A stretch of DNA of 64,000 nucleotides, taken from NCBI GenBank assembly GCA_043779525.1, contig JAYWED010000008.1:24881-88880 (forward strand), read 5' to 3'. The notes beneath the pieces were generated by a model that saw only the letters and a program-made list of their open reading frames with translations, was not told where the DNA came from and searched no databases. Origin of the DNA: Candidatus Eiseniibacteriota bacterium (GTDB lineage: Bacteria > Eisenbacteria > RBG-16-71-46 > SZUA-252). This document shows, piece by piece, positions 1 through 17,353 of the stretch (the stretch's first letter is position 1; every line of letters starts with the position of its first letter). Position numbers and translations under genes: made by a program.

Positions 1-1426
1 GAACGCAGGATCGATCTCGATCGCGCGCGTAAACCACTTGATCGCAAGGCGGAGCGATTCGGGGGTGCGCTTGTTCCAGTGAAAGCGGCCCTTGAGGTAG
101 GCGTCGTAGGCCTCGCTGTCGGAGGGCTCCGGCGCTGGCGCGGCCTGGCTCGGTCCGCCGGAGACCAACTCCACCTCGAGCGCTTTCGCGACGGCCGACG
201 CGACCTCATCCTGAACATCGAAGACGTCGGCGACGCGCCGGTCGTAGGTCTCGGCCCAGAGATGGCTCTGGTCCGCGACCTGGATCAGCTGCGTCGTGAT
301 GCGGATCCGGTCCCCCGCGCGACGGATGCTTCCCTCCACCACGTACTCGACCCCCAGCTCCTTCCCGATCTCCTCGATGCTCTTCGCCGTCTTCTTGTAG
401 CGCATGGCCGATGTCCTCGCGATGACGCCGAGACGCTTGGGCTGAAGACGGCCCAGATGCGTGATCAGCTCCTCGGTCATGCCGTCCGCGAAGAATTCCT
501 GCTCGGCGTCGGCACTCCGGTTCTCGAGCGGCAGGACCGCGAGCATGAGCCGCCCTCCCATGGGCGCCCCCGGAGTGCCCCGAGCCGGGGGCGTGAGCGT
601 GGAGGAGATCGCGTCGCTGAAGGCGTTCATGGTCGGGAAGCGGTCCGCCGGCGCCTTCGCGAGCGCGCGGGTAAGGGTCTGTGTCATGTACGCGGGCGTT
701 GTGGGCCGGAGCGCCGTGGCCGGACGGGGATCCACCGAGCGGTGCTGCAGCAGAACACTGTCGCCGGTGGGGCCGGTGAACGGGGGCTGGCCCGTCACCA
801 TCTCGTACACGACGCAGGCGAGCGCATACTGATCCGCACGTCCGTCCAGCGAGCCCCCCGAGATCTGCTCGGGGCTCATGTACGCGGGCGTTCCAGCGGC
901 CGACACGGTGTGGGTCTCGGAAGTCGCCACCGCGTCGGAGCCCCGCGCGATCCCGAAATCGAGCACGAGCGCGTGCCCTCCCGAGAGCACGATGTTCTCC
1001 GGCTTCACGTCCCGGTGCACCAGGCCCTGGTCGTGGGCGTAGCGGAGCGCGTCCGCGACCTCGCGCGCGATGCGGATGGCGTCCTCGATCGGGAGCTGCC
1101 GCTCGCGCTGGAGACGCCTGCGGAGCGATTCGCCACCGAGGAGCGGCATGACGTAGTAGAGGAGGCCGTCCGCTTCTCCCGAATCGAAGAGCGGCACGAT
1201 GTGCGGATGCGAGAGCCGCGCCGCGGTCTCGATCTCGGCGCGGAACCGGGCGGGCCCGATGGCGGCCGCCAACTCCGGATCGAGCACCTTGATCGCGACG
1301 GAACGCCCGTGCTTCTCGTCCCGCGCGTCAAACACCTGCCCCATGCCGCCCCGAGCCAGCTCGCCCTTGACGTCGTAGCGCCCGGAGAGCGCGGTTTTCA
1401 GGCGGGTGAGCGTATCGGCGGGCACG
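1..1426 (-). CDS. Ser/Thr protein kinase with C-terminal TolB_N-like/TPR-type extension (partial; C-terminus runs off the window start). The GTG start is inferred.
   Basis: The reverse-strand translation gives GELARGGMGQVF (Gly-rich loop), AIKVL, HRDVKPENIVL, DFGIA and GTPAYMSPEQ, which are the canonical Hanks kinase subdomains. Downstream of the kinase domain is ...LPLENRSADAEQEFFADGMTEELITHL..., a TolB_N-like module. There is no stop before position 1. This ORF is not in the supplied track because it is edge-truncated. Confidence 0.85.
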
Positions 1427-1504
1427 GAGGGGAATTTAGCATAGGTTCGCGAGGCGGGATGGAGGGGCGACGGCGAGGCTTCGAAGAACTCCTAAGGCGT
1501 TAAT

Positions 1505-1580
1505 TGGAGGCGGCACCCGGATTTGAACCGGGGAATAACGGTTTTGCAGACCGTCGCCTTAGCCACTTGGCTATGCCGCC
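1505..1580 (-). tRNA. tRNA-Cys (anticodon GCA), including an encoded CCA
   Basis: The reverse complement reads GGCGGCATAGCCAAGTGGCTAAGGCGACGGTCTGCAAAACCGTTATTCCCCGGTTCAAATCCGGGTGCCGCCTCCA. It folds as a cloverleaf with anticodon loop CT-GCA-AA and T-loop TTCAAAT. A -35 TTGCGC / -10 TATACT promoter lies just upstream on the minus strand, around 1600-1640. Confidence 0.85.
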
Positions 1581-1808
1581 CCCGCAAGTGGTTGAGTATA
1601 GCGTGGTTGGCGAAGGGTGCAATCGGGGAAATCGTGAAAGAGCGACGGTCCGGAGGACCGTTGCTCCTCAGCATGTTTAGCGAATAGGAGAGCAGTCCAC
1701 GGCCTTCACTTCGCTGCAAGGGCTGCCCACGCTACGCGCGGCCGAACCGGGTGGCCGGCGCTACGCGCCGCCTCCTCGCCGCTGCCGCGGCGGACAGGGT
1801 TCAGCGGC

Positions 1809-4800
1809 TCAGGTTGAGATGGAGGACGAACGCGCCACCACCCGGAAACCGTTTTCGTCGGACCGGGCGCCGGGAGGAGGCACGTTGCGGGCGGCCGCGC
1901 GCGCGAAGACCTGACCGTCGCTCCATGCGCCGCCCCGCAACACCCGGCGGACATCCGGTCCTGCCTCCGGGTCCTCCCGTCCATCGGCCGGGTCGTACGG
2001 ATACGCGAACGGGGCCTTCTCGAACTCCAGCCCCGCACCGAACAGGCTTCCCGTCCACTCGCCCACGTTCCCTGCCAGGTCGCTCACGCGCTCGGGCGTC
2101 TCCCCCTCCACGAACACCCCCACCGGCGTCGTACGGCCCACCTTCGTCGCGGCCGTATTCCCCCACAGCGCCCTGAACGGGTTGCCCCACGCGTACTGCC
2201 GCCCTTCCTTCCCCCGAGCCGCCGCCTCCCACTCAGCCTCCGTCGGCAGCCCGTATTCCTCCCCCGTTTGCGCCGACAGCCAGTTGCAATACGCCCGCGC
2301 CTCGTACCAGCCCACCCCCACCACCGGCTGCGATGGGTTGTTGAACCGCCCATTGTGCCAGAGGGCCGGCGACCGCAGCTTTCCCCCCGGATGGAGTTCC
2401 CGCAGATGGGCCTCGAGCTCGCCCTCATCCATCTCCAGCCGCTTCTTCCAGCGTTCGTAGCTCTCCTGCGGCACCTCGCCCTTCCTCCAGGACTCCTCCA
2501 GCTTCTCGGGGTCCTGCCGGAACTGCCCGTACCAGTACTTCACGTTCGCGTGCGCCCCATCCGCCGCCCCCTCCCCGCTCCACCATCGCCTGGCGCCCGC
2601 CGTGTCCCACCACCGCGGCTCCTCGTAGCCTCCGGCATCCATGAAGCGGCGCCACTCCCCGTTCGTCACCGGATACCGGCCGATCCGGAACGACTCGACC
2701 TCCACCTGGTGCCGGGGTATGTGCGCCTCGATCCGGTGGCCGAGGAACTCGAACACCTCGTCCTCGCCCATGGGGTAGAGTCCCCCGGGGATCGCCACCA
2801 TCGGCGGCACCAGGTACCGCCCGTGCGGCCCCTCGCACTCCTCGAATCGCGGGTCCCCGAGCACGCCGAGCGCCAGCCCCGCCTCGATGCGCGACCTCAG
2901 GTCGGCCTCACGGTCAGTGCTCCGCCGGACCAACGCCTGACGAAGATCGTCGAGCGTGCCCCAGTCCAGTCGCTCCCGCACTTCCACGTGACCCGCCGCC
3001 CGGCCGGCCACCACCAGGTTCGTCCCCATGAGATCCCGGATGTAGGCGTCCGGATCCTCCGTCATCGCCGCTCCCAGGATCGCGGTCTCCTCCCAGCCCG
3101 TCGTCTCGAGCGGCGGGAGCTGCTCTCCGGGCGGCAGCGTCTCGATGATCTCGCTCAGCGGGGGGGTGATTGCCCGGGCTCTCCACGCCGCCTCGACCCG
3201 CTTCGGATCCGGTGTCTTCGCCAGCTGCCTTCCTGCGAAGTACTCCTGCACCAGCTGGTGCACGTAGAGCACCTCCTCCGTCCCCTGGTCCTCGTCCAGC
3301 ACCGATAGCGCCAGACCTGCCTTCACGATCTCCGCCTCGTGCTCATGATTCAGCAGCTTTAGGGCCTCGTCGTACCCCACCCGAACCTGACCCCTGCCTC
3401 CCCCGCCCGACTGCATGGCGAACGCCAGCTCCGACAGCTTCGGCACCAACACGCCGCGCTCGGGCAGCTCCCATCTCGTCTTCCACGCCCACTGCGTGAT
3501 CCGGCGAATGTCCCGCTCGGTCAGAAGACCGTTCGGAGCGAACTGCGGATTCCCGCGTTCCACCTCCCGCCGCAGCGCCTGGCGCACGAATCCCGTGAAC
3601 AGCCCTGCCCAGCCCTCCGGCACCTCCCTCGTCGCCTCCACCTGGTCGGTCAAGAGCGACAGGAAGTAAGGCGAGCGCACGAGCTCCAGCTGCGGGGTTC
3701 CCCTTAGCTGGCTCCAGATCTTCCCGCCTTGGTCGGGGCTCTGCTTCTCGAGGAACTGCGCCACCTGCTCGTCGGTGAGCGGCTCAACCACCACCTGCGG
3801 AACCCGCAGCCCCGGCGTCGAGAGCGGGGCCGAGTAGTCCAGCGTCCGGCAGCTGAACACCACCCGCGTCCCCGGATGGTCGCTCACAACCCGATCGAGG
3901 AAGCCCTTCCAGGCGAGCACGGCCTGATGCAGAGCCGAGGTATTGGCCATCGGCATCTCGTTCAAGGCGTCCAGAAGCACGATCATCCGGCCGGTCTTGA
4001 GGAGGTCGCGCAGCGGCGGCATCTCCGGGTGGCGCGCCGACCAGCGTTCGGCGAGCCAGGCTTCCGGATCGGGAAGCGGCTCCTGACCGCGTCCCTTGTA
4101 CTGGTTGAGCTGGATGAAAAACGTCACCGGCTGCTCTGGATCGGTGAGACCCCTCTGGGCCGCTTCCAACTCCAGGCGCCGCAGGAGCGTGCTCTTCCCG
4201 CAGCCCGGCGATCCGAGCACCACCACCGCCGGGTCCTCCACCTGGCGCAGCAACTCCCCGAGGTCCCGGTACGTCACCGGCTGCGCGCTCCACCGCCCGG
4301 ACGGCGTCTCCTCGCCCTGATCCACCAGCAACGTCAGCGCGACGAACTCCCGGTCCAGCTTGTAACGCGGCTGGCTCCACTCCCGGATGCGGCTCTCGCG
4401 ATAGGCGGCGAGCGCGGCAATGGCGTGCGCATCGCTTCTCCGGACCGCTGGGCCATGCGCGGTGGACGCTGTGGTGACTCGCGTCTCGGACGTCGCAGAG
4501 GTCGCCGAAGCGTGTCCTGCGCTACCCGACCGCCGCCCCCACTCCAACTCCCGCTGCAAATCCTCGAGATCGTTCCGCACGTCGCGCGCCGTCCGGTAGC
4601 GGCGAGCCGGCTCCTTAGCCAGGCACCGCCTCACGATCCGCCCGAACTCCTCGGGAAGATCCGCCCGCCGCTCGGTCACCGGCTGCGGCTCTTGCATCAG
4701 GACCGCCGCCATGATCTCCGTGAAGCTCCTACCGGTGAACGGTCGCGTTCCCGTGGACAGCTCGTAGAGCATGATGCCAAGCGCGAACAGATCCGTCCGC

Positions 4801-5408
4801 GCATCCACCGCCTCGCCGTGAATCTGCTCCGGCGCCATGTAGGGCACCGTCCCTACCACCATTCCTTCCTTTGTGATGGCGGTGGTGGCAATGCCCCGGG
4901 ACGTGTCACCGGAAACAGGCTCTTTCGGCCGAAAGATCTTCGCTAGGCCGAAATCGAGTACCTTCACCCGCCCCTCGTTCGTCACCATTACGTTCCCCGG
5001 CTTCAGATCTCGGTGGACGACACCCCGCTCGTGCGCTGCGACAAGGGCGTCGGAAACGGGGATTACTATATCGAGGAGGCGGGAAAGCTGTAGGCCGCCG
5101 GGGGTGACGAGCCGATCGAGGCTTTGGCCCTCGACAAGCTCCATCGTGATGAAGCGGAACCCCTTCTCTTTCTCGATGGAATGGAGCACTACGATGTTGG
5201 GGTGATTGAGGCTCGCGACGGTCCGGGCCTCGCGCTCGAATCGGGCCAAGCGGTCGGGGGAGGAGGCTACCGCCTTGGGCAATACCTTCACCGCCACATC
5301 ACGTCCGAGGCGCAGATCGCGTGCGCGGTAAACCTCGCCCATCCCGCCGGTTCCGAGGAGGCCAGTGATCTCGTAGGTGCCGAGGTGGGTTCCTGATGCT
5401 AGGGCCAT
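1809..5408 (-). CDS. Three-domain STAND protein: N-terminal Ser/Thr kinase, central NACHT NTPase, C-terminal FGE-sulfatase (formylglycine-generating-enzyme-like, FGS) domain. Candidate bacterial NACHT (bNACHT/Avs-like) defence or signalling protein.
   Basis: Kinase motifs GTGGMGEVYRARD, HRDLKPGNVM, DFGLAK and GTVPYMAPEQ. Walker A VVLGSPGCGKSTLL, Walker B MIVLLDALNEM, and the NACHT-type FSCRTLDY and SPYFLSLL motifs. C-terminal GRYPVTNGEWRRF...GWYEARAYCNWL...RGGAW...GFRVVA matches the FGE-sulfatase/DUF323 fold. The ATG at 5408 is preferred over the TTG at 5450 used by the ORF track. Confidence 0.8.
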   Translation of the reverse strand: MALASGTHLGTYEITGLLGTGGMGEVYRARDLRLGRDVAVKVLPKAVASSPDRLARFEREARTVASLNHPNIVVLHSIEKEKGFRFITMELVEGQSLDRLVTPGGLQLSRLLDIVIPVSDALVAAHERGVVHRDLKPGNVMVTNEGRVKVLDFGLAKIFRPKEPVSGDTSRGIATTAITKEGMVVGTVPYMAPEQIHGEAVDARTDLFALGIMLYELSTGTRPFTGRSFTEIMAAVLMQEPQPVTERRADLPEEFGRIVRRCLAKEPARRYRTARDVRNDLEDLQRELEWGRRSGSAGHASATSATSETRVTTASTAHGPAVRRSDAHAIAALAAYRESRIREWSQPRYKLDREFVALTLLVDQGEETPSGRWSAQPVTYRDLGELLRQVEDPAVVVLGSPGCGKSTLLRRLELEAAQRGLTDPEQPVTFFIQLNQYKGRGQEPLPDPEAWLAERWSARHPEMPPLRDLLKTGRMIVLLDALNEMPMANTSALHQAVLAWKGFLDRVVSDHPGTRVVFSCRTLDYSAPLSTPGLRVPQVVVEPLTDEQVAQFLEKQSPDQGGKIWSQLRGTPQLELVRSPYFLSLLTDQVEATREVPEGWAGLFTGFVRQALRREVERGNPQFAPNGLLTERDIRRITQWAWKTRWELPERGVLVPKLSELAFAMQSGGGGRGQVRVGYDEALKLLNHEHEAEIVKAGLALSVLDEDQGTEEVLYVHQLVQEYFAGRQLAKTPDPKRVEAAWRARAITPPLSEIIETLPPGEQLPPLETTGWEETAILGAAMTEDPDAYIRDLMGTNLVVAGRAAGHVEVRERLDWGTLDDLRQALVRRSTDREADLRSRIEAGLALGVLGDPRFEECEGPHGRYLVPPMVAIPGGLYPMGEDEVFEFLGHRIEAHIPRHQVEVESFRIGRYPVTNGEWRRFMDAGGYEEPRWWDTAGARRWWSGEGAADGAHANVKYWYGQFRQDPEKLEESWRKGEVPQESYERWKKRLEMDEGELEAHLRELHPGGKLRSPALWHNGRFNNPSQPVVGVGWYEARAYCNWLSAQTGEEYGLPTEAEWEAAARGKEGRQYAWGNPFRALWGNTAATKVGRTTPVGVFVEGETPERVSDLAGNVGEWTGSLFGAGLEFEKAPFAYPYDPADGREDPEAGPDVRRVLRGGAWSDGQVFARAAARNVPPPGARSDENGFRVVARSSSIST

Positions 5409-5484
5409 GGGGGAGCTAATGTAACCGGAAGATCGCCTCTTGGTCTCCAATCAAGGACGGACTACGTGGCACCAGCTGGCTCCG

Positions 5485-5531
5485 GTCAGGTTGGCCATTC
5501 CTGGCAATCGTTGGCCACCGTTGGCCACCCG
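5485..5531 (-). promoter_or_regulatory. three direct repeats of TGGCCAAC (10/20-bp phasing) immediately upstream of the kinase-NACHT-FGS gene
   Basis: The minus strand reads gTGGCCAACggTGGCCAACgattgccaggaaTGGCCAACctgacc. The same motif block recurs at 12330-12375 and 13648-13680. Confidence 0.5.
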
Positions 5532-5733
5532 AAGCACGAAGCCCAAGGGGGTCATCCATCTGGGGCTTCGCGTAATACCTTGTCGCGACGCTACTCCGAG
5601 GATCGGCCTCAAAATCGCTGGTAGACTCCAGATGGAACAGGACAGCCACTACGCTTTTCAGCGAGAGCCCTCGCGTTTTCGAGCCGATTCTTGATGGTTC
5701 GCATGCACTGCACATCACTCTCGATGGCAGCGA

Positions 5734-6948
5734 CTACTGGGTCGTTTGCACGATCCACACCCGCCCGTCCGGCACGCCGTGCGAGAAGCTCATGTCACGC
5801 ATCAGATTCCCGAGCATGATCACATCGGAGTGGCCGCCGTCGTCATAGTGGAACCTGGGCACCGGGATGTACGGCGGATTGGGGCCGGTGGTAACCTCAG
5901 GCCCGGTATTCTGGTTGGACATCATCGACTTGGGTGACATTCCCCAGAGTGGCAGATCCGTGAACACGACCCTGATGCCGGTTGCGCCCGACGAATTGAT
6001 GACCGGGGTGTCGTAGTGCATTTCGGTGAGGCACCAGTCGAACGGCGCGACGTCCCGGCTCGCCGCGGGCCCGGTCCAGATCTTGGCCCGCAGACGATAA
6101 CAGACGTTCCTCACCTCATCGCCGTACTTGGTGCGGTTTAGGTCACTCGCGCCCTGATTCTCGACGATAATCGCGACCCGCGGCCACATCGTGTACTCCT
6201 GGTTCCACGGTGCATTCGCGAAGATCTTGTTCAGCTCGGTGTCGCGGATGTTTCGATAGGTGGTTTCCGTGACCGGTGGGTCTCCAAAATGGAACACGCT
6301 CACCGTTGCGCCCGCCATGGGGAGCAGCGGCTTCTTGGCATCGGGATCCTTCGCGGACAGCATCGCGAGCGCCGCGCTCCCGGCAGCCGCCGTCCCGGTC
6401 TTCGACTCGTTCGAGACCTCGATCACGCGGAGCTCAATATCCTTGCCTCCGGTGGTGGAGACGTTAGCGACAATCCCCCGGACGAATACGTCTTTGCAGC
6501 CGAGCTCGCACTTGGCCTTGCGCATCCATGGGATGATCTCGTCCGGCACTTGGTCGAACAGCACCTGGCCGACCTCCTTGCCTGCCGAGTCGATCAACGA
6601 ACCACTATTGGAAAAACTGCTTGTCCGCCTGACGAGTAGTTGCGTCCGCATGCCGCCGAAGACCTCGACGTACTTTCCGACGAATTGCGGCGCCCGCGTC
6701 CTCCACTCGGAGGGCGTCACCGCGGTCCACTTCGTCCCGGGAGGCGCGACGGCAATCTCGGTCGTGGTGGAGTGGCTGGGGCGAACGGGAAGATACGGTC
6801 GCCCGCGTCGCGTCGGAGACCACTGTATCGAGTCGACCTTGGAATGATACTGCGCGCCAAGCAGGGAGCCAGCAGGCACTGTGAGCACGGTGAGCACTGC
6901 GAGCATTGCGAGCAACAGACGCTTCATGGCAACTCCTTCTGGGTCCAT
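5734..6948 (-). CDS. hypothetical exported protein (N-terminal signal peptide)
   Basis: A 404-aa ORF with a hydrophobic N-terminus, MKRLLLAMLAVLTVLTVPAGS. No confidently recognisable domain. The start may be the internal ATG near 6927. Confidence 0.5.
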   Translation of the reverse strand: MDPEGVAMKRLLLAMLAVLTVLTVPAGSLLGAQYHSKVDSIQWSPTRRGRPYLPVRPSHSTTTEIAVAPPGTKWTAVTPSEWRTRAPQFVGKYVEVFGGMRTQLLVRRTSSFSNSGSLIDSAGKEVGQVLFDQVPDEIIPWMRKAKCELGCKDVFVRGIVANVSTTGGKDIELRVIEVSNESKTGTAAAGSAALAMLSAKDPDAKKPLLPMAGATVSVFHFGDPPVTETTYRNIRDTELNKIFANAPWNQEYTMWPRVAIIVENQGASDLNRTKYGDEVRNVCYRLRAKIWTGPAASRDVAPFDWCLTEMHYDTPVINSSGATGIRVVFTDLPLWGMSPKSMMSNQNTGPEVTTGPNPPYIPVPRFHYDDGGHSDVIMLGNLMRDMSFSHGVPDGRVWIVQTTQ

Positions 6949-6984: not shown

Positions 6985-8646
6985 CTACCTGGCGACCACG
7001 ATCTTCCGTGTACTTACCTCGTGTCCGGACTCGAGACGCGCAAAGTAGATCCCGCTTGCTACCTCCCGACCGTCCCAAAACACCGATCGCCAACCCGCCG
7101 CCTGAAGCTCGTTCACCACGGTAGCGACCTGCCTGCCCTGGAGGTCGTATACGACGAGGCGCACCGGCCCCGCCTTGGGGAGACCGTACGTGAACTGCGT
7201 CCTGAACCCGAACGGATTGGGATAGCCCGGCTCCAAGCGCACGACCTTCGGCGCTGCCGTCCCCTCGGGCACAGTCACCCACGTCTCGATCACATTCTCC
7301 TGCGCGGTTACGTCGCGCACTACGAGTCGGTAGCCGTACGTAAGGCCGGGCGTGACGGTATCGTCCACAAAGATGATGTTCCGGTTCAGGTCGGGCACCG
7401 GATGCCCGGCAAGCGTCCAGTCGCTGTCGGCGGTCCGTCGGTAGACGCTCGCCTGTGCGATCTCGTCGCCCGGGGCGTACCAGCTGATGCGAACGTGCCC
7501 GGCTTCCGTTTGAACGCTCAGCATGACGAGGGAGATGGCTGTCGTCGCCGCAGGCGTGAGGCGATAGGTGCCGGTGCCGGCGAAGTTGAAGGAGTTGTCG
7601 CTCGCGACGACCAGGTAGGTGCCCGTGACGGGCGCGGTCGCCGAGACCTGCGTGCCGGAGGGCCCGGAGTTGTTCCTGAGTTCGGTCCCGGTGGGGCTGT
7701 AGAGCCGGAGTTCGGGCGTGAGTGTGCTGCCCTGGACGATCTCCTCCATGGTCACGATCAGGTTGTCGCCGGCGGTAGCGTCGATCGTCCAGAGATCGAG
7801 ATCGCCAAGTTCCAGGGAGCCGAAGCTGAGCCCCGAGGGCAGCGGGCCGCCCTCGTCGCCCGAGGAGACCGTCACCGGCGATCCCGTCTTCGCCATCGTG
7901 ATCTCGTAGGCGCCGGAGCCGGCGAAGTTGAAGGAGTTGTCGCTCGCGATCACCACGTACTGTCCCGTCACGGTCGCGTTCAACTCGACCTCGGAGGCCG
8001 AGGGGGAGCTGTTGGGGCCGAGCTGCACGCCCGTCGGGCTGATGATCCGCAGCTCCGGCGTGAGCGTGCTGCCGGTGGCCGTCTCGCCCATGCGCACCAC
8101 GATCCGGTCGCCCGCGGTGGCGTCGACCGTCCACGCGTCGAGGTCGCCTAGCTCGAGCGTCCCCGCGTTCTTCGCCCCGTTCACGAGCGGGCCGCCCTCG
8201 TCGCCCGAGGAGACCGTCACCGGCGATCCGGACTTCGCCATCGTGATCTCGTAGCCGCCGACCTGCGGCGTGCTCGAGTTGTCGTCGACGACGACCGTGT
8301 AGGTGCCCGTCGAGGACGCGGTGCTCTGAACCTCGGCGGCGGACGGGCCCGAGCTGGTAGCGAGCAACGTAAGGTCTGGGCCGAAGAGGCGAACGCGCGG
8401 CGTGAGCGGCGAGCCGGCCACCGTCTCGCCGACGCGCACGATGACCGCATCGCCCGCATTGGCGCTGACCGTAAAGGTGTCCGCCTGGCCCGTGAACAAG
8501 ATCGCGCCAGCTACGCGCGCGCCGTTGACCAGTGCGCCCTGGGCCGCTGCGCTCGTCGGCCACAACGGCGCCGCCAGCAACGTAACGAGGGCGATGGCGA
8601 TTGGATGGATGGTACCCCACAGCGAAATGCATGCGCGTCTATCCAC
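6985..8646 (-). CDS. secreted multi-repeat protein with a C-terminal T9SS/FlgD-Ig-like sorting domain
   Basis: Signal peptide, then four roughly 85-aa internal repeats (...GETATGSTLTPELR...YEITMAK(S/T)GSPVTVSSGDEGGPL...). The C-terminus, PGYPNPFGFRTQFTYGLPKAGPVRLVVYDLQGRQV...WDGREVASGIYFARLESG, is typical of T9SS type-A / FlgD Ig-like domains. Confidence 0.7.
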   Translation of the reverse strand: MDRRACISLWGTIHPIAIALVTLLAAPLWPTSAAAQGALVNGARVAGAILFTGQADTFTVSANAGDAVIVRVGETVAGSPLTPRVRLFGPDLTLLATSSGPSAAEVQSTASSTGTYTVVVDDNSSTPQVGGYEITMAKSGSPVTVSSGDEGGPLVNGAKNAGTLELGDLDAWTVDATAGDRIVVRMGETATGSTLTPELRIISPTGVQLGPNSSPSASEVELNATVTGQYVVIASDNSFNFAGSGAYEITMAKTGSPVTVSSGDEGGPLPSGLSFGSLELGDLDLWTIDATAGDNLIVTMEEIVQGSTLTPELRLYSPTGTELRNNSGPSGTQVSATAPVTGTYLVVASDNSFNFAGTGTYRLTPAATTAISLVMLSVQTEAGHVRISWYAPGDEIAQASVYRRTADSDWTLAGHPVPDLNRNIIFVDDTVTPGLTYGYRLVVRDVTAQENVIETWVTVPEGTAAPKVVRLEPGYPNPFGFRTQFTYGLPKAGPVRLVVYDLQGRQVATVVNELQAAGWRSVFWDGREVASGIYFARLESGHEVSTRKIVVAR

Positions 8647-8777: not shown

Positions 8778-9734
8778 CTACTTCGCCAGATCAAGCAAGA
8801 GCGAGGACACCCAGCCCTTGTTGCCGATTTCGTCGGAGACCTTCCACCAGATCCCGTCCTTATCCCCTGTCGGATACAGCATCATCCCGACGTCGAGGTT
8901 GCGCACCGCAGAGGATGCCGGATCAGCCTTCTCGTACATGCGCCCAGGCTTGGCCATGGTGACGGACTGCCTGACGTTGTCGGCCTTAGAGTCGGGGCTG
9001 TCCTTCTTGACCTCCTTGACCTCGGCGACGAGCTTCGTGAAGGCGTCGAGGTACGCCATGGCGACGACCTGACCGATCTCGGTGTTGGCGTAGCTGCCCG
9101 CCCCGGCGGCCGCGAAGCCGCCCGAGAACACGCCACCCCCCGCCCCCCAGCCCACGTTGGTCTTCTTCGCGTGGCCCTTGACGACGGCGACCTCCTCGGT
9201 CGAGCGCACATCGGTCAGCGTGAGCACCACATCCGCTGTCTTCTTCTTCAGGCTGACGCCGCCCAGCACGACGCCCAATCCACCCGCGCGCCTGCCCAGC
9301 AATCCACCAAAGGCTCCACCGATGCTCTTTCCGCCGGCGTTCGAGTTCTGACTCACGATGTCCGGGATCAGCACGTAGTCCGCAGCCTTTATCTGGCCCT
9401 TGCCGATGTTCGATTTGCCGCCCAGCTCGCCGCCGGCGGCGAGCTCACGCTCTTTCTCCGCCGCCTCCAGCCCCCTGCCGCGGTCGACCAGCGTGAAGCA
9501 CTTGCATTCGGAGACGAACACCTTGATGAGTGCTTCAGGAGATTCGAGGTTGTACTGCACCCACCACTTCTGCTCGGGCTCGACCACGGACAGGGTGCCG
9601 AACGTCCTGTCGCAGGCAGGAAGTTGCATTTCCTTCTCTCCCGCGGCGACGGCTGAGGCACTCCCTGCCGTGAGGATTGCAAGCGTTAAGAAGTGCACTG
9701 CGAGGCGAAATCGGGCGCGGGACCGGATTACCAT
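8778..9734 (-). CDS. CsgG-family (curli production/transport-like) lipoprotein with a C-terminal SH3-like segment
   Basis: The segment ...KAADYVLIPDIVSQNSNAGG...GHAKKTNVGWGAGG... is characteristic of the CsgG/TolB-like secretion lipoprotein family. A 17-bp tandem duplication sits at the 3' end. Confidence 0.6.
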   Translation of the reverse strand: MVIRSRARFRLAVHFLTLAILTAGSASAVAAGEKEMQLPACDRTFGTLSVVEPEQKWWVQYNLESPEALIKVFVSECKCFTLVDRGRGLEAAEKERELAAGGELGGKSNIGKGQIKAADYVLIPDIVSQNSNAGGKSIGGAFGGLLGRRAGGLGVVLGGVSLKKKTADVVLTLTDVRSTEEVAVVKGHAKKTNVGWGAGGGVFSGGFAAAGAGSYANTEIGQVVAMAYLDAFTKLVAEVKEVKKDSPDSKADNVRQSVTMAKPGRMYEKADPASSAVRNLDVGMMLYPTGDKDGIWWKVSDEIGNKGWVSSLLLDLAK

Positions 9735-9870
9735 TCGATCTCCTTCCCCTGGAAGGGGGAGTGTGTGAGCCAGGTTGTGCTCACTAGATGTCTGCAGCTT
9801 TTTCCAACCTTGGTAAGAGCTACACGCCCCTGGATCACCTCGTGCATCGGGGCGCGGCCCTGATCTTGGG

Positions 9871-9889
9871 CATGGGGGATTCCCCCATG
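9871..9889. repeat. perfect 8-bp-stem hairpin CATGGGGG-ATT-CCCCCATG within a roughly 45-bp direct repeat (second copy at 10378-10422)
   Basis: The block catcggggcg...tgat...gggatgggggattcccccatgg occurs at 9844-9890 and 10378-10422. The two copies bracket the truncated REC-only gene. Confidence 0.6.
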
Positions 9890-9898
9890 GCCGGGATG

Positions 9899-10420
9899 CT
9901 ATTCAGGACCGAGCCCTTCCCGGAGCTTCGGGCTCCCGGACTTCTCCCCGCCGAGCACGTATCGGATGGCGATCAGCAGCGTCTCGCCCAGCTCCGCCTT
10001 GTTGATGTAACCGCGGGCGCCCGCCCGGAAGGCACGTCGGGCGTAGACGGGCGCATCGTGCATGGTGAGCACCAGAACCGGCAGACCCTCATGACCCGCA
10101 CGGATCTCCCTCACCAGTGCCAGCCCATCCCCTTCGTCGAGCGCGAGATCGGTGATGACCAAGTCGGGTCGGGATGAGGCGATCGCCTCGAGCCCTGCCT
10201 GTGGCGTGGCGACCGCGGCGCAGACGGTGAGATCGGACTCGTTGTCGATCAGCGCGGTCAGGCCGCGCCGCACCAGAGCATGGTTGTCGACGATCAGGAT
10301 CCGACGCCTGGCGGGCGCTTCTAGTGCGATGCTCTCGTTGTGCATGCCGACACGGTGCCGCATGAGCGCAGCACTAGCATCGGGGCGACGGGCTGATTCC
10401 GGGATGGGGGATTCCCCCAT
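9899..10420 (-). pseudogene. truncated NarL/FixJ-family response regulator: receiver domain only, LuxR-type HTH missing. Either a gene remnant or a stand-alone REC protein.
   Basis: ILIVDNHALVRRGLTALI...PDLVITDLAL...LPVLVLTMHD... aligns with the receiver domain of the adjacent full-length response regulator at 10439-11123. The ORF stops shortly after the ...YVLGGE helix, with no DNA-binding domain. It is flanked by a repeated roughly 45-bp segment that contains a strong hairpin. Confidence 0.55.
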
Positions 10421-10438
10421 GGGGGGGAAGCGCGGGGG

Positions 10439-11123
10439 TCAGCGGCTGCGGCCGGTTTCAACCCATTGCGTCGCGCGCTGGGCCAGCTCGGCAGTTGTCT
10501 CGAGGCTCAGCTTGTTCTTGATGTGCTCGCGGTGGGTTTCGATGGTCTTGATGCTCAGGTTCAGGGTGTCGGCGATCTGGCGCGTGCTCCGGCCTTGACC
10601 GATCAGCCGGAACACCTGCAGCTCGCGGTCGCTGAGCGCGTCCAGGGGCGAGTCCGTTTCCAGCGTTCGCCCATCGACGAATTTCGCGGCGAGCCGCGCC
10701 TCGAGCGTGTCGCTCATGTACGTCTCGCCGTCGAGCAGACGACGGATGGCAACCAGCACGGTGCTGTCGAGCTGCTGCTTGGTGACATAGCCCCGGGCGC
10801 CGGCTTTCAGGGAACGCTCGGCATAAACCGCTTCGTCGTACATCGAGAGCACCAGCGCCGGAATCGCGGGATGGCGCTTTCGCATCTCCTTGACCAAGTC
10901 CAGGCCGTCACCTTTCCCCAGCGCGAGATCGACGATCACCAGGTCGGGTCGGCGCTCCGGAATGGCCGCGAGCGCCGCCGGGCAAGTCGCGGCTTCCCCG
11001 CACACGGCCAGGTCGGGCTCGGAGTCGATCAGGGCGGCCAGGCCGCGGCGAAGCGTGGGGTGGTCGTCGACGATCAGGATCGTCTTCCGGACCGGGCCGA
11101 CTCGTTCAGCTTTTCTCGCTGGC
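10439..11123 (-). CDS. NarL/FixJ-family response regulator (REC + LuxR HTH)
   Basis: Receiver domain TILIVDDHPTLRRGL...DLVIVDLAL... and a C-terminal LuxR-type HTH, ...LSDRELQVFRLIGQGRSTRQIADTLNLSIKTIETHR.... Its ATG at 11123 overlaps the stop codon of the upstream kinase at 11106-11108, so the two genes share one transcript. Confidence 0.85.
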
Positions 11124-12230
11124 ATGATCAGGCTTCTCGCGGGTGTCGGGTGTGCCGGACAGCGGAAAGGCGCAGGTGACGGCCGTACCGTGCGGGGCCC
11201 GACGTCGCACCTCGAGCGAGCCACCGATTAGGCGCGCCCGATAGGCCATCGTGTGCAGCCCGACCCCCCCTGGAGTGGACGCCTCCTCGGGCATGCCCAC
11301 CCCATTGTCCTTGATGCTCAGGAGACCCCGCCCGTCCTTCGAGCCCAGGCTGATCTCGATCCGATCGGCTTTCCCGTGCGCGATGGCGTTGTTCACCGCT
11401 TCCTGCGCGATGCGAACGATGTGCGACGCGGCCTCGGGACGTGGCCGGAGACAGGGGCGATCACACTCGAGTGTGCAGGTGACACGAAACAGGTGCCGGA
11501 CACCGAGGGTCAGGGTCTCGAGCGCGCCGTCAAGACCGGCCTCGTTGAGGCCAACCGGACCTAGATCGTGGGCCAGGCCGCGGGCCTGGATGATGCTCTC
11601 GTTCAGAAGTGTGGCGATCTCGGCGGCCATAGCCGACGCCGCGGATCCGGCGTTCGCCGCCAGCCTCTTGGAAAGTGTGGAGCCCAGGGCCGCGATACCT
11701 GCCAGGGATTGGCACAGTCCGTCGTGCAGCTCCCGGCCCAATCGCTCCCTTTCTCGATCCAGTACCTCGAGGATCTCCCTCTCGAGCCACTTCTGCCGCG
11801 TGACGTCCCGAGCTGTGGCGTAGATCTCCTGGCGCCCCGGCACAGGCTGCGCGTTCCATTGCAGCCAACGGAATGAACCGTCCTGGTGGCGGTACCGATT
11901 CTCGAAGAGGATCGTCTCTGAGCCTTCGGCAAGCTTGCCGACTTCCGCCTGCGTGGCCACGCAATCGTCGGGGTGCACGAAGTCGAGGAACGGCTTCGCC
12001 TTCAGCTCCTCCAGGGTCCACCCCAGACAGGCCGTCCACGCCGGGTTCAGGTATTTGAAGTATCCACCCTGCCCGGCAATGCACAGCAGGTCGAGCGACT
12101 GGGCGAAGAAGCGGGCGAACTCGTCATCGGCCCGCTGCGAATGTGCTGGCGGGGTTTGCATGCTCTCAACGCGCCGGAGTCGGGTGTTGAGATTTGCCGT
12201 GCGCTGCTTTTGAGTGCGAGCTCGGTCCAT
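11106..12230 (-). CDS. sensor histidine kinase (PAS + HisKA_3 + HATPase_c), NarX/DegS-like partner of the downstream response regulator
   Basis: PAS-like N-terminus. His-box ELHDGLCQSLAGI (HisKA_3 type). ATPase N/G boxes ...AQEAVNNAIAHG..., ...DNGVGMP... and GGVGLHTMAYRA. Confidence 0.8.
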   Translation of the reverse strand: MDRARTQKQRTANLNTRLRRVESMQTPPAHSQRADDEFARFFAQSLDLLCIAGQGGYFKYLNPAWTACLGWTLEELKAKPFLDFVHPDDCVATQAEVGKLAEGSETILFENRYRHQDGSFRWLQWNAQPVPGRQEIYATARDVTRQKWLEREILEVLDRERERLGRELHDGLCQSLAGIAALGSTLSKRLAANAGSAASAMAAEIATLLNESIIQARGLAHDLGPVGLNEAGLDGALETLTLGVRHLFRVTCTLECDRPCLRPRPEAASHIVRIAQEAVNNAIAHGKADRIEISLGSKDGRGLLSIKDNGVGMPEEASTPGGVGLHTMAYRARLIGGSLEVRRRAPHGTAVTCAFPLSGTPDTREKPDHASEKS

Positions 12231-12329
12231 TGTCGAGGGAGAGCCTTTCGGGTCTCGCTTGCGCTGGGGTCCCTCTCAATGTGAGCGGTCACCCCCCAGA
12301 GGTTGAAGCGCCAAACAGTATGACTGAAT

Positions 12330-12375
12330 GGCTACGGCGCTGGCTACGGTCAGGTTGGCCATCGTTGGCCACCCG
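12330..12375 (-). promoter_or_regulatory. two direct repeats of TGGCCAAC (10-bp phasing) upstream of the NarL-type HK-RR operon
   Basis: The minus strand reads gTGGCCAACgaTGGCCAACctgaccgtagcc. The flanking ggctacggtc context is shared with the 5485 and 13648 copies. Confidence 0.5.
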
Positions 12376-12550
12376 AAAGACGAAGCCCCAAGAGGGCCAT
12401 TACGCATCAGCAACTGTGACCGATCTGGGACCTGCTGAGCTTCCCTTCCCGGCCTTCAGCGGCCCCTCGTGGCCAAATGAAAAAGCCCCGGAAGCTGAAC
12501 GCTCCCAAGGCTCTCAATCACTTACGGACGTGGGCCGAGGCTCGTGGATT

Positions 12551-12690
12551 CGGCTTTGCAGACCGTCGCCTTAGCCACTTGGCTATGCCGCCCCCGCAAG
12601 TGGTTGAGTATAGCGTGGTTGGCGAAGGGCGCAATCGGGGAAATCATGAAAGAGCGACGGTCTTATGGACCGTCGCTCTCCTAGACATTT
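12551..12690 (-). repeat. copy of the tRNA-Cys 5' half (to the anticodon loop) plus its promoter and upstream hairpin
   Basis: Near-identical to 1541-1680 from ...TTGCAGACCGTCGCCTTAGCCACTTGGCTATGCCGCC through the -10 TATACT / -35 TTGCGC promoter and the GAGCGACGGTC...GACCGTCGCTC hairpin. It diverges exactly in the anticodon loop, and the tRNA 3' half is absent. Confidence 0.8.
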
Positions 12691-12962
12691 ACCGAATCGG
12701 GGGGCATTCCATCCCGGGCAGCGACGCGCACCGCCTGGATCGAGATCGCCCCCAGGCATTTATCGGGGCAATCCCCATCGCCCTCTCGGTGAAGGGTTGG
12801 CTTCCCGAGATAAGTGCCCTCGGTGTCCTTTGCGGCGAGGTTGTCCATGTGCATGAAGCGGTTGATTCCCATCGTTTCAACGAAGAACTTCTCGGCGGAC
12901 GCCGGGTCTCGGACGACCCAGGCAACCTGGCAGAAGGCTGGAGCAATCACTGGCTTTGTCAT
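12681..12962 (-). CDS. small VOC (glyoxalase/bleomycin-resistance)-like protein, possibly truncated
   Basis: The N-terminus, ...FCQVAWVVRDPASAEKFFVETMGINRF..., resembles a VOC beta-alpha-beta-beta-beta module. It is only about 93 aa long and abuts a copied tRNA-promoter repeat and hairpin. Confidence 0.35.
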   Translation of the reverse strand: MTKPVIAPAFCQVAWVVRDPASAEKFFVETMGINRFMHMDNLAAKDTEGTYLGKPTLHREGDGDCPDKCLGAISIQAVRVAARDGMPPDSVNV

Positions 12963-13411
12963 GTTTGAGACCCCGGTGGAGGCCACGCATCGATGACCTG
13001 ACGCAGGGCAACGATCTTCCCGAGGTGGTAAGCATTATGAACGGCCAAGCTCTCGAGCATCTCGGCAAGCGTGACTCCCGGACTCACTTCCTTCATCAGC
13101 GCCTCATGTGAGCGCCCTAACTCTACTGCCGTCTCCGACCCGGCGAGAAACTCACTGACGAGATCTTCCCACATGCGCTCGTTGCCAGGCGCCTCTGAGG
13201 GAAACTGCTGTCCCCCGTCAATATATGCAGCTGCGGCTGGTTCGTCGCATTGAACGACGATCGACTGCCACTTGGTTGTGTGCCAGAGCTCCTCGTAGAT
13301 CGTATGCGGGAGCCCAGGTGGCCGCACGCTCACCTGCTCGACCGTCAGACCGGAGAGCAGGCGAGCCCGGGACATGAACTCGTCAATGAAAAGATGCTCC
13401 CACTGACCCAT
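12959..13411 (-). CDS. DinB/YfiT-like (DinB_2 superfamily) metal-dependent protein
   Basis: 150 aa, with a four-helix-bundle type sequence, ...TVEQVSVRPPGLPHTIYEELWHTTKWQ...HNAYHLGKIVALRQ..., and the conserved His pattern of DinB_2. Confidence 0.55.
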   Translation of the reverse strand: MGQWEHLFIDEFMSRARLLSGLTVEQVSVRPPGLPHTIYEELWHTTKWQSIVVQCDEPAAAAYIDGGQQFPSEAPGNERMWEDLVSEFLAGSETAVELGRSHEALMKEVSPGVTLAEMLESLAVHNAYHLGKIVALRQVIDAWPPPGSQT

Positions 13412-13647
13412 GAATCGAATGTCTTTCCCTTAAAGATGACGTGCGGCAGTCCGCCGAACAAGAATTAGACTGAACCATGTATCAGGATACGGAGACCAGC
13501 CTATCCCAAGCCCCCTCCGCTCGTGTGAAATTCCGGAGGGCGACGACGGCACCTCTGCCTACCAGGAGCGGGGCAGCTTCTGGACACGGACGTGGGCTCG
13601 CCTTCGCTCGAACCCGCAGCAGACGGATCGCAAACTCTCGCCCCATT

Positions 13648-13680
13648 GGCTACGGTCGTGGCTAGGTTGGCCATTCCTGG
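13648..13680 (-). promoter_or_regulatory. single TGGCCAAC motif with the conserved flanking context, upstream of the DinB-like/VOC genes
   Basis: The minus strand reads gccaggaaTGGCCAACctagccacgaccgtagcc. Confidence 0.4.
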
Positions 13681-13723
13681 CGAGGACCGGCCCCAAAATC
13701 GGCGAAAATCAGATCAAAATACG

Positions 13724-13806
13724 TTGCAGACCGTCGCGTTAGCCACTTGGCTATGCCGCCCCCGCAAGTAGCGTGGTTGGCGGTGGGCGCAATCGAGGAA
13801 ATAGTG
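13724..13806 (-). repeat. second copy of the tRNA-Cys 5' half plus promoter, with a 10-bp internal deletion
   Basis: TTGCAGACCGTCGCGTTAGCCACTTGGCTATGCCGCCCCCGCAAGT--AGCGTGGTTGGCGGTGGGCGCAATCGAGGAAAT matches 1548-1640. The break point is again in the anticodon loop. Confidence 0.75.
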
Positions 13807-13821
13807 CGAGGGCTTCGGGAA

Positions 13822-14550
13822 TTACGCTCCACCGCCGACCTGCACGGGCTCGCCCTGCTCGGCCATATGCGGCTTGCCGAGCGAGTCCAGGATATGCCCG
13901 GACTTGTCGCGCTTGGTCTCGAGATAGAACCGGTTGTACTCGTTCGCAGGGATCACGTGAGGCACGCGACTGGAGATCCGAACACCAAACCGGATTAACT
14001 CCTCGACCTTCTTCGGGTTGTTGGTCAACAAGCGGACCGAGCCGACCCGAAGGCTGTGAAGCATGTGAGCCGCGATCGAGTACTCGCGCTCATCATCGCG
14101 AAATCCGAGAGCGAGATTGGCCTCGACTGTGTCCAGACCCCGATCTTGGAGTCCGTAGGCGCGCAGTTTGTTGAGCAAACCGATGCCGCGCCCTTCCTGC
14201 CTTAGATAGAGCACCAGGCCGCAGGGTTCGCCGGCAATCACGCGCAGCGCAGCCTCGAGCTGGTCGCGACAGTCACAGCGAAGCGATCCGAGCGCGTCTC
14301 CGGTCAGGCACTCTGAGTGCACCCGCGTCGGCACGCCCTCGCGTCCGATCGGGTTACCGTGCATGATCGCGACGTGTTCCTTGCCGTCACGGTTGTTCCA
14401 GAACGCGACCACCTGAAATAGCCCGAAACGGCTGGGCAGGTCCGCGATGGCGACAATTCGAACGCAAATCTTCTTTTCCCCAACACCGGCGCATTCGTGA
14501 TCGGCCTCTTCCCTGAGAATCGCATCGATCTCCCCGACGGTCAGTCGCAT
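13822..14550 (-). CDS. ribA: GTP cyclohydrolase II (RibA-type)
   Basis: ...RVHSECLTGDALGSLRCDCRDQLEAALRVI...YLRQEGRGIGLLNKLRAYGLQDRGLDTVEANLALGFRDDEREY... carries the Zn-binding CX2C...C pattern and catalytic Arg/Tyr motifs of RibA. The upstream 147 codons of the track ORF are low-complexity and were not included. Confidence 0.85.
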   Translation of the reverse strand: MRLTVGEIDAILREEADHECAGVGEKKICVRIVAIADLPSRFGLFQVVAFWNNRDGKEHVAIMHGNPIGREGVPTRVHSECLTGDALGSLRCDCRDQLEAALRVIAGEPCGLVLYLRQEGRGIGLLNKLRAYGLQDRGLDTVEANLALGFRDDEREYSIAAHMLHSLRVGSVRLLTNNPKKVEELIRFGVRISSRVPHVIPANEYNRFYLETKRDKSGHILDSLGKPHMAEQGEPVQVGGGA

Positions 14551-14569
14551 GAAGAACTCCTTTGGAGGT

Positions 14570-15625: not shown

Positions 15626-15658
15626 GTCGAACCGATGGCACTCGTCACTTGAGAGCGG

Positions 15659-16225: not shown

Positions 16226-16244
16226 GGCAGCCCTTCCCTCGACT

Positions 16245-17189: not shown

Positions 17190-17290
17190 CGCTTCACCCA
17201 ACTCATTCCCCATTGTGGGCCACCCGCCCAGGTCTCTGCTCCAGTCCTTCTTTGGTGCTGCTCGTAGCTTTTGATGAACATTTTTTGAAC

Positions 17291-17353
17291 GGGATTCATA
17301 GTAGGGCAATCCCACAACGGATATACTGTTCATTATATATTCAAACTTTGAAT
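17291..17353. promoter_or_regulatory. AT-rich divergent promoter region carrying two inverted repeats, candidate operators for the MerR/B12 regulator
   Basis: GGGATTC-N9-GCAATCCC at 17291-17313. ATTCAAA-CT-TTTGAAT (7-bp perfect inverted repeat) at 17339-17353. Local GC is about 35 % against a roughly 68 % background. Confidence 0.45.

Follow-up and report, generated by a model that had tools for sequence, protein, structure and literature searches.

The gene described here lies near the left end of a 64,000-nt stretch of DNA from a Candidatus Eiseniibacteriota bacterium (contig JAYWED010000008.1, positions 24,881 to 88,880; hereafter the window, with a G+C content of about 66%). It encodes a single protein in which an N-terminal Hanks-type Ser/Thr kinase is followed by a NACHT NTPase module, a helical linker and a C-terminal FGE-sulfatase or C-type-lectin-fold (FGS) domain (Table 1). 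The minus-strand frame 1809-5450 is singled out as the true gene by its G+C content at third codon positions; homologs set the start at an ATG and do not support the in-frame upstream TTG at 5450. An identical protein is encoded by the Logan contig SRR23617219. An intact tRNA-Cys(GCA), found with ARAGORN, lies 228 nt 3' of the stop codon on the same strand. A preliminary description of this DNA had treated positions 1505-5531 as one unit, a gene directly downstream of tRNA-Cys. The sequence is real, but that span merges the tRNA, the gene and a repeat block, and the stated order holds in plus-strand coordinates only, the adjacent tRNA being downstream in the direction of transcription. The claim of one open reading frame (ORF) of 1199 residues with kinase, NACHT and FGE-sulfatase domains is confirmed, all three passing curated Pfam thresholds, as are the four NTPase motifs it had named (GSPGCGKST, DALNE, FSCRTLDY and SPYFLSLL), whose key positions vary little or not at all among 18 homologs. 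Neither a sigma-70-type promoter nor an intrinsic terminator was obtained from consensus scans of positions 1400-5800. In what follows, L001-L036 are labels of loci or contigs of relatives, and P00xx denotes proteins of relatives.

The catalytic residues of the kinase are intact (K41, E60, HRD 132-134, N139, DFG 152-154 and APE 192-194) and nearly invariant in the alignment of the kinase-bearing homologs, the DFG being read from alignment blocks. When the AlphaFold2 (AF2) model was submitted to Foldseek, the top matches were the kinase domains of PknB and PknA, with a target-normalised TM of about 0.8-0.9; the search with the whole protein returned kinase structures only and is thus silent on the NACHT fold. 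Hundreds of kinase-TPR proteins from other Eisenbacteria are 59-71% identical to this domain. Within the window it shares 47% identity over 290 residues with the kinase at 22317-24578, a relationship that the words "closely paralogous" had overstated, and 38% with a third Ser/Thr kinase (1-1491). The third kinase, of kinase-TPR-type architecture, starts near 1400 on the minus strand, exits the left end of the window and is itself 38% identical to the kinase at 22317-24578; the plus-strand ORF 79-1503, antisense to a real minus-strand gene, is apparently spurious.

This kinship brings in the main rival explanation, namely that the protein is a housekeeping or environmental signalling kinase, in which a STAND switch is controlled by an FGS domain sensing an endogenous or environmental molecule, without any role in conflict. 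STAND NTPases do act as ligand-gated switches in regulators of the MalT, AfsR and Mycobacterium tuberculosis PknK type. Besides the presence of two more such kinases in the window (1-1491 and 22317-24578), this explanation is favoured by the position of the L028 gene directly after a kinase-TPR gene, and by the absence of known defence genes near the gene, as judged by Pfam on the main ORFs of positions 1-28.3 kb. The evidence that speaks against it comes from the sensor, the family and the genomic context, which are described below.

In the second module, the Pfam NACHT model (PF05729) matches residues 395-556 with 42.1 bits, against a gathering cut-off of 26.7, whereas the competing nSTAND1 model reaches 21.5 bits, under its cut-off of 27.1. 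Walker A, GSPGCGKST, occupies residues 399-407, with G399, P401, G402, G404, K405, S406 and T407 invariant in the 18 homologs. Walker B (L478-E484) falls within LLLDALNE at residues 477-484 and reads D480-A-L-N-E484, with the small residue and the second acidic one in place and an Asn, invariant in the family, at the first acidic position. The signature given by Kibby et al. is D[GAS]hDE, and NLRC4 has DGYNE at the aligned position. FSCRTLDY lies at residues 518-525, its FSCR part (518-521) being sensor-1-like, and SPYFLSLL at residues 579-586; the latter is largely invariant in the 18 homologs, the key positions of the other three motifs fully so. Further on, a winged-helix motif, HQLVQEYFAGR, spans residues 717-727, and its H717 motif aligns with FHKSFQEYTAGR of NLRC4. 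A profile of the NACHT region, built from 19 family members and searched against PDB sequences, matched NLRC4 (3e-7) and NLRP3 (7e-4), then NLRP9, NLRP14 and NLRP1. Beyond the P-loop, the solved structures matched by this profile are animal NACHT NLRs only; no other STAND clade was found among them, and the remaining weak matches are generic P-loop proteins. Judged by profile similarity, the nearest solved relatives of the NTPase module are thus the animal NACHT NLRs. The conserved linker that follows contains TGWEETA and DLR.RI.AGLALG.LGDPRF in conserved columns and is predicted to be all-helical (AF2 model, predicted local distance difference test score mostly 80-90), and it may be HEAT-like.

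The FGS domain contains a helical insert of about 80 residues. Most members of the family are unnamed, and those that bear a name are mostly annotated as "SUMF1/EgtB/PvdO family nonheme iron enzyme". Taken literally, this public annotation would make the protein an FGE/EgtB/PvdO-family enzyme fused to a kinase, and the best PDB sequence match of the domain, EgtB (1.8e-21), agrees with the source names; FGE, PorK, PvdO and TvpA, a target of a diversity-generating retroelement (DGR), are also matched. The NCBIfam enzyme models all score far under their cut-offs (EgtB 104.9 versus 360, SenA 96.7 versus 420, PvdO 67.8 versus 500, and likewise OvoA and GldK), and the C-terminal part of the domain best matches PorK, PvdO and TvpA, called non-catalytic members. 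In FGE, the catalytic cysteine pair is located between the GGS[YW] and GFR motifs. The corresponding segment of the window protein, residues 1163-1187, contains no cysteine and is hypervariable; at the same position, a true FGE fragment in L027 reads GGSYLCTDQYC. The enzymatic explanation was rejected on the NCBIfam scores and on this cysteine-free hypervariable segment, and we give it almost no credence. The FGS domain has the FGE fold but, from its sequence, is non-catalytic.

The hypervariable segment comprises 25 codons, in which the alignment shows near-complete difference among orthologs that are otherwise 73-77% identical, and the residues exchanged there (N, Y, S, D, F and H) are those that NNC codons typically encode. 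Within the kinase clade, codon positions 1 and 2 differ there in 24-56% of codons, compared with 8-18% elsewhere in the gene, the background divergence at positions 1/2/3 being about 0.12/0.09/0.31. Between the window gene and L027, the 25 codons carry 8/11/2 differences at positions 1/2/3, with position 3 under-diverged (P = 0.005); between L001 and L015 the figures are 10/13/1 (P = 0.0013 for position 3), and between L001 and L028 position 3 differs in 2 of 25 codons (P = 0.009). Third positions held constant in this way point to repeated copying from a shared template, since positive selection alone would not produce them, and the codon pattern is the signature typical of DGRs.

Three more distant homologs carry the retroelement itself. 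Directly 3' of the gene in L016, L017 and L018 there is a second copy of the variable segment, a template repeat (TR), and the mismatches between TR and variable region (VR) fall at TR adenines in 15 of 16, 15 of 18 and 18 of 19 cases, respectively. Because an adenine-specific TR is found there together with an Avd-like gene and a reverse transcriptase (RT), these cassettes are complete DGRs. L018 is an FGS-only fragment from a Blastocatellia metagenome-assembled genome (MAG), the N-terminus of which is off the contig. For the kinase clade, the predicted TR scaffold has the constant flanks ...TTGCGGGGCGGCGC[AG]TGG and GG.T..CGGGTGGTGGC.CGTTCGTCC; scans of viral contigs for the predicted 5' end of the TR and for the constant segment resembling an initiation of mutagenic homing (IMH) site gave 0 matches each. 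A 62-residue FGE-like ORF in L027 was considered as a TR and rejected, as it is the remnant of a true FGE with a CxxxxC motif. Conservation of the constant 3' segment and of the hairpins past the stop extends to orthologs at unrelated sites in the genome; together they may form a terminator or, alternatively, an IMH-like target for homing that includes stem-loops. Because no TR, RT or Avd was found locally, continuing diversification in the kinase clade is something that we infer.

The family was searched with the NACHT-FGS part alone, at a threshold of E <= 1e-20, and comprises at least 1185 relatives. The best 120 of these 1185 are all at least 51% identical, nearly all of them over about 98% of the query. 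Among species-representative genomes, relatives with both NACHT and FGS occur in Eisenbacteria (L001, L003 and L015), in MAGs labelled Fibrobacteraceae and Bradymonadales, and in many Chloroflexota. While this chassis retains 46-85% identity, the N-terminal effector changes between kinase, cyclase, TIR and cyclase with TCAD9 (Table 1), most Chloroflexota relatives carrying an adenylate/guanylate cyclase. The family is most expanded in filamentous Chloroflexota, where paralogs stand head to tail in arrays of four copies (L005, 3-16400) or two (L010, 7745-17876, and L019). Candidatus Epilinea brevis has four cyclase versions at one locus and copies at two further loci, and the L010 array, from a Caldilineae MAG, consists of two cyclase+TCAD9 versions. 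Decayed members are also encountered: P0020 and the third L005 copy (13018-15039) are frameshifted or truncated, which suggests that individual copies undergo continuing decay. On these alignments, effector exchange on a conserved chassis is the pattern described for STAND proteins of biological conflict.

Kibby et al. distinguish two "antigen receptor-type" sensors in bacterial NACHT proteins, one of which is FGS, and the effector-NTPase-sensor layout of NACHT/Avs type that had been proposed for this gene is supported, as it matches that type and its relatives swap kinase, cyclase, TIR and TCAD9. In the excerpted part of Table S1 of Kibby et al., clades 1 and 23 combine TIR, SIR2, cyclase or TCAD9+STY-kinase with a following NACHT and FGE-sulfatase; no protein of these two clades bears a bNACHT designation in that excerpt, so that apparently none was assayed. 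The gene is thus a further member of a computationally described architecture class, of which a kinase-bearing example was already present in Kibby et al., and by its architecture the window protein would stand nearer clade 23 than clade 1. DGR-diversified NACHT-CLec (C-type lectin) targets of multicellular bacteria have been described by Dore et al. 2024 (PMC10907252), and a 2026 survey counts FGE-sulfatase-like sensors among STANDs.

The surroundings of the gene indicate that it has been inserted. The tRNA-Cys and its upstream flank, in which a sigma-70-like promoter can be recognised by eye (TTGCAC at 1617-1622, a 16-nt spacer, TATACT at 1595-1600; not listed by the consensus scan), belong to a repeated unit. 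Its promoter and 5' half occur as three direct repeats in the window, one with the intact tRNA at 1539-1699 and two as orphan copies B and C, both of which break directly after the anticodon (GCAAA). A 163-residue ORF (12477-12968, plus strand) that overlaps orphan B is without Pfam match and probably not a gene. An orphan 3' half of tRNA-Cys (24646-24690, minus strand, 85% identity over 41 nt) sits just 5' of the kinase-TPR gene 22317-24578, an arrangement that mirrors the intact tRNA-Cys followed by the kinase at 1-1491. When metagenomes were scanned with 40 nt of the repeat unit, eight loci were found. ARAGORN reports an intact tRNA at four of them, one being L031, whose copy seems to be broken as well, a few bases further on. 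The remaining four, L030, L033, L034 and L036, are orphans. The break falls after GCAAA in all six full-length orphans, two from the window and four from metagenomic contigs, and two junction types recur across samples. L029 and L032, with an intact tRNA-Cys, and L031, with the broken copy, lack the gene just upstream. In L029, a 41-codon match to the kinase N-terminus (1356-1478) lies directly upstream of the promoter of the intact tRNA-Cys and seems to be what is left of a kinase or kinase-NACHT-FGS gene after deletion.

Orthologs occupy comparable sites. In L015, the ortholog is found between an orphan fragment (5563-5609) and the intact tRNA-Cys (10178-10252), together with a gene of XRE helix-turn-helix (HTH) type. 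This gene and its 64-residue partner were considered as a toxin-antitoxin pair, which was rejected: the XRE-type HTH is the only part supported, and the partner is without Pfam match. The insert in L028, between a fragment at 5861-5912 and tRNA-Cys at 12052-12126, consists of a kinase-TPR gene and the ortholog directly after it. The orphan fragments of L015 and L028 are more degraded than the window copies. A different target is used in L026, where the ortholog is the sole gene between the 3' end of the tmRNA and an exact 24-nt repeat of it at 13774-13797. Positions 9436-14942 of this contig contain the 24-nt tmRNA 3' end three times (two exact copies, then one of 83%), which delimits two tandem islets after ssrA, and each att copy is accompanied by repeats containing GTCTCCA. 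No synteny with the window is seen in the flanks of L001, L026 and L027, and around the gene in L001-L004 no convincing flanking direct repeats were found. From the orphan halves, the tmRNA repeats, the non-syntenic contexts and the tRNA-Cys loci of relatives that lack the gene, the sequence data indicate that the gene is accessory and has moved. tRNA-Cys looks like an insertion hot spot at which the incoming element supplies promoter and 5' half, the reverse of the usual 3'-end duplication. An island location, first suggested by tRNA adjacency, is thus borne out by further evidence, the orphan tRNA-Cys halves, the tmRNA-end direct repeats and the differing contexts, and the comparison with relatives that had been proposed as a check finds the gene variable in presence and position and not syntenic (L001, L026, L027, L029, L031 and L032).

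The ends of these insertions are also marked by short repeats. TGGCCAAC has six exact copies in the window, against 1.4 expected, a number reached in none of 100 shuffles: three lie 5' of the gene, two (12354 and 12364) 5' of an operon encoding a PAS-HisKA_3 kinase, a NarL-type regulator and a receiver, and one beside orphan C. The phased block 5' of the gene is homologous to the blocks beside the orphan tRNA-Cys halves, and TGGCCAAC/CGTAGCCA repeats with a phase of about 10 nt accompany orphan halves in both the window and L015. Upstream of the orthologs in L001-L004 and L026-L028 there are none. Because TGGCCAAC is missing upstream of most orthologs and is found at tRNA-Cys junctions, including ones unrelated to the gene, to which it is confined, it was rejected as an operator of the gene or a NarL site. 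The repeat block said to be shared with the NarL-type operon is present at both places, but it marks tRNA-Cys insertion ends and not a regulatory link. We suggest that TGGCCAAC/CGTAGCCA are arm-type recombinase sites at the islet ends.

These observations bear on the signalling explanation. In other lineages, TIR and cyclase effectors are mounted on this chassis, and paralogs occur in tandem arrays; hypervariability of the candidate ligand site is accompanied by a DGR signature and, in some homologs, by an adjacent DGR, whereas the sensor of a fixed metabolite should keep a conserved binding site; and the distribution is patchy, with a genomic location that shifts and includes att-bounded islets. 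A signalling kinase does not explain effector swapping, DGR linkage or mobility, and we hold this explanation to be unlikely.

That the gene product is a conflict or antiphage receptor is plausible from these features. More specifically, we consider it probable that the gene encodes an NLR-like receptor, of the NACHT clade of STAND proteins and of the "antigen-receptor" type, with a diversified sensor and a kinase output directed against phages or other invaders. The protein is probably cytoplasmic. In the mechanism that we propose, the non-catalytic lectin-fold FGS domain would present the 25-residue hypervariable surface and recognise a specific ligand, most probably a phage protein or one from another invading element. 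Ligand binding would free the NACHT module for nucleotide exchange and oligomerisation, which would gather the N-terminal Hanks kinases for trans-autophosphorylation; host or invader proteins could then be phosphorylated, and the infection or the growth of the cell stopped. The variable region would be rewritten, now or recently, by a DGR elsewhere in the genome, and small integrase-less islets, inserting at tRNA-Cys, in the anticodon loop, or at the 3' end of tmRNA, would carry the gene as cargo. The starting points of this scheme are direct observations (the domains with their catalytic motifs, the effector swapping, the DGR beside some homologs, the codon signature and the att-like repeats), and its steps are modelled on NLR and Avs biology and on the kinase defences Stk2 and PD-T4-6. 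A bolder version would see a portable adaptive receptor cassette, with a DGR acting in trans, the 3' segment and hairpins as homing target, an islet at tRNA-Cys or tmRNA mobilised in trans, and phosphorylation as output instead of nuclease or NADase activity; this we put forward tentatively, as a possible but rather doubtful extension.

The target need not be a phage. The protein could be a conflict receptor directed against other mobile elements, competitors or kin (allorecognition), or an addiction or benefit module of the islet. The gene is the sole cargo of the att-bounded islet in L026 and also resides on tRNA-Cys islets, and the expansion of the family in filamentous Chloroflexota is in line with Kaur et al., who tie such systems to multicellular or social lifestyles. 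On the other side, the tested bacterial NACHT proteins, which are of other clades, protect against phage (Kibby et al.). The present data separate neither phage nor non-phage targets from the other, and we assign the non-phage alternative a low probability.

Several points weigh against an antiphage or anti-invader receptor. The kinase comes from the lineage's own large signalling family, so that its output may be regulatory instead of lethal. Towards the C-terminus of the FGS domain, the AF2 model is of poor quality. As to the DGR, a blastn search (word size 7) with the last 200 nt of the gene revealed no TR in the 64-kb window, with nothing above 31 nt, and none was found beside L001-L004, L015 and L026-L028 (up to 10 kb of flank on each side); neither RT nor Avd is present in the 64-kb window, and tblastn with the L017 proteins matched L016-L018 only. 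Pfam detected no integrase or recombinase in the main ORFs of window positions 1-28.3 kb (a subset of the ORFs) or in the L015 flanks, and the gene tables of L026-L028 contain no integrase. The neighbours are ordinary: a hypothetical protein, a PPC protein with a type IX secretion system (T9SS) tail, a CsgG-like protein, two response regulators with a histidine kinase, DinB and RibBA. PADLOC-DB v2 matches the kinase only (PD-T4-6, mad6, MkoA and others, with PD-T4-6 and mad6 covering residues 1-326 at 1e-94 to 1e-73) and has no model for the NACHT-FGS part, apart from a 30-residue P-loop match to mad8 shown by the window protein and by 18 of 19 family members; of the model sets proposed as a check, Pfam thus bears out the domains and PADLOC recognises the kinase alone. 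Finally, CLec domains on STAND proteins have not yet been characterised experimentally (Dore et al. 2024, PMC10907252), and the literature holds no functional data for FGS-type NACHT proteins.

Table 1. Positions of the gene, its domains and the associated repeats in the window, and of DGR cassettes and N-terminal effectors among the relatives.
Feature	Position or locus	Strand	Remarks
tRNA-Cys(GCA)	1505-1580	minus	intact; ARAGORN
tRNA-Cys upstream flank	1581-1699	minus	part of repeated unit
Constant 3' segment and two GC-rich hairpins past the stop	1741-1847	minus	conserved at the nucleotide level
Kinase-NACHT-FGS gene	1809-5408	minus	1199 aa; start ATG 5408, set by homologs (MALASG...)
FGE-sulfatase / C-type-lectin-fold (FGS) domain	1836-2807	minus	aa 868-1191; Pfam PF03781, E 1.3e-46
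Variable region, 25 codons	1848-1922	minus	aa 1163-1187; between RGGAW and FRVV, ending at the Gly of GFRVV
Helical linker	2808-3188	minus	aa 741-867, between NACHT and FGS; conserved
NACHT NTPase module	3189-4421	minus	aa ~330-740
Hanks-type Ser/Thr kinase domain	4593-5375	minus	aa 12-272; Pfam Pkinase, E 1.4e-49
Phased repeat block 5' of the gene	5475-5555	minus	TGGCCAAC at 5520, 5510 and 5490; TTGCCAGG at 5500; then degenerate CGTAGCCA-like units
TGGCCAAC x2 / CGTAGCCA x2 block	12339-12395	minus	~185 nt inside orphan B, 5' of the histidine-kinase operon
Orphan copy B, tRNA-Cys promoter + 5' half	12551-12711	minus	88% identity over 161 nt; tRNA part 100%
TGGCCAAC block after orphan C	13651-13681		copy at 13666
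Orphan copy C, tRNA-Cys promoter + 5' half	13724-13818	minus	tRNA part 98% identical
DGR cassettes (VR, TR, Avd, RT)	L016 4257-6755; L017 12426-14501; L018 1527-3624		3' of TIR-NACHT-FGS (L016, L017) or of an FGS-only fragment (L018)
Pkinase effector	window, L001-L004, L015		Eisenbacteria group
Guanylate_cyc effector	L005, L008, L009, L012, L019, L020, P0019		three or four tandem copies in L005
Cyclase + TCAD9 effector	L010		two tandem copies
TIR effector	L014, L016, L017

Further neighbours are an amine oxidase, a MerR-B12 regulator, a GNAT protein, a DsbA-like protein, the kinase-TPR protein, a PD40 protein and an ice-binding-like protein. Some of these genes have features of their own. The secreted PPC protein with the T9SS C-terminal sorting tail (6985-8646, minus strand) contains three tandem repeats of about 342 nt at 7592-8356, 70-96% identical. 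A 120-nt repeat (10182-10301 and 10962-11081, 73% identical) is common to the two neighbouring response-regulator genes, and a near-palindromic GGGGGATTCCCCCATGG element lies just past the 3' end of each (9869-9899 and 10401-10431). In 14570-17444, an amine-oxidase-type flavoprotein gene is found near that of a MerR-HTH/B12-binding regulator of CarH-like architecture, which suggests light-controlled carotenoid genes. The product of 26905-28299 (plus strand) has an Ice_binding match of 2.5e-68.

What is new here is the DGR-type hypervariable site proposed for the ligand, the DGR signature without a local DGR, the integrase-less islets at tRNA and tmRNA genes, and a Hanks kinase drawn from the kinase family of the host. 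FGS-sensor NACHTs, combining an NLR-type switch with a hypermutable binding site, would be the bacterial systems most like a receptor with somatic diversification, and this clade provides them in compact form, as a single gene whose output, phosphorylation, is easy to assay and for which natural variable-region alleles are on hand from orthologs otherwise 73-83% identical. If active, the protein would show by what means a NACHT switch is gated by a lectin-fold sensor, whether a bacterial NLR scaffold can use a kinase as immune effector, and whether a DGR can service a remote target. Should the cassette interpretation be true, the gene would be a bacterial analogue of an NLR that signals through a kinase and hypermutates. 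In practical terms, defence finders at present detect only the kinase in such receptors, and the annotation as nonheme iron enzyme amounts to a systematic misannotation of at least 1000 of them, which hides their NACHT nature and implies a catalysis that the sequences do not support.

Several known systems can be compared with the gene and its context. CIME-like elements are integrase-less, att-bounded islets accreted in tandem at tRNA or tmRNA genes. The islets described here share with them the direct repeats of target fragments, the tandem copies, the phased repeats beside att cores and the lack of a recombinase gene inside; they differ in that the window tRNA-Cys duplicates promoter and 5' half, with a break in the anticodon loop, whereas duplication of the 3' end is usual, and they are known from sequence alone. 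With Avs proteins, the gene shares the effector-STAND-sensor logic in one gene, but no PADLOC Avs model matches its NACHT-FGS part, the NTPase clade differs, and Avs sensors are TPR-like. With the animal NLRs NLRC4 and NLRP3 it shares Walker A, a DxxNE Walker B (DGYNE in NLRC4), the winged-helix HxxxQEY and the tripartite logic. The similarity is weak (profile E 3e-7), and the animal proteins have LRRs as sensor and a CARD or PYD adaptor, where the window protein has a lectin fold and an enzyme. A Hanks-type Ser/Thr kinase output is common to Staphylococcus Stk2 (Depardieu 2016, as cited in PMC13581612), PD-T4-6 and Mad6 of MADS, which have no NACHT or FGS sensor; the PADLOC matches to the window protein are restricted to the kinase and probably reflect generic homology.

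On the side of the sensor, the DGR targets of STAND-CLec type (PMC10907252), as well as Treponema TvpA and BPP-1 Mtd, share a C-terminal variable region of lectin/FGE fold between RGGxW and GFR. The codon signature is present in the kinase clade, TR-Avd-RT cassettes accompany the homologs L016-L018, and the FGS domain matches TvpA. In contrast to these targets, the 64-kb window has no TR or RT and the flanks of the kinase clade (up to 10 kb) no TR, so that a DGR would act remotely or have been lost. As to the whole architecture, the window gene differs from the FGS-type bNACHTs of Kibby et al. (clades 1 and 23) by its plain Hanks Pkinase, which comes from the Eisenbacteria kinase-TPR family and is without TCAD9, and by its lineage, Eisenbacteria / Krumholzibacteria, which is absent from their table. 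It shares with them the order effector, NACHT and a single long FGE-sulfatase domain (about 305-326 residues), its relatives share their effector repertoire of TIR, cyclase and TCAD9 with a kinase, and this class as a whole has been predicted to be a conflict system.

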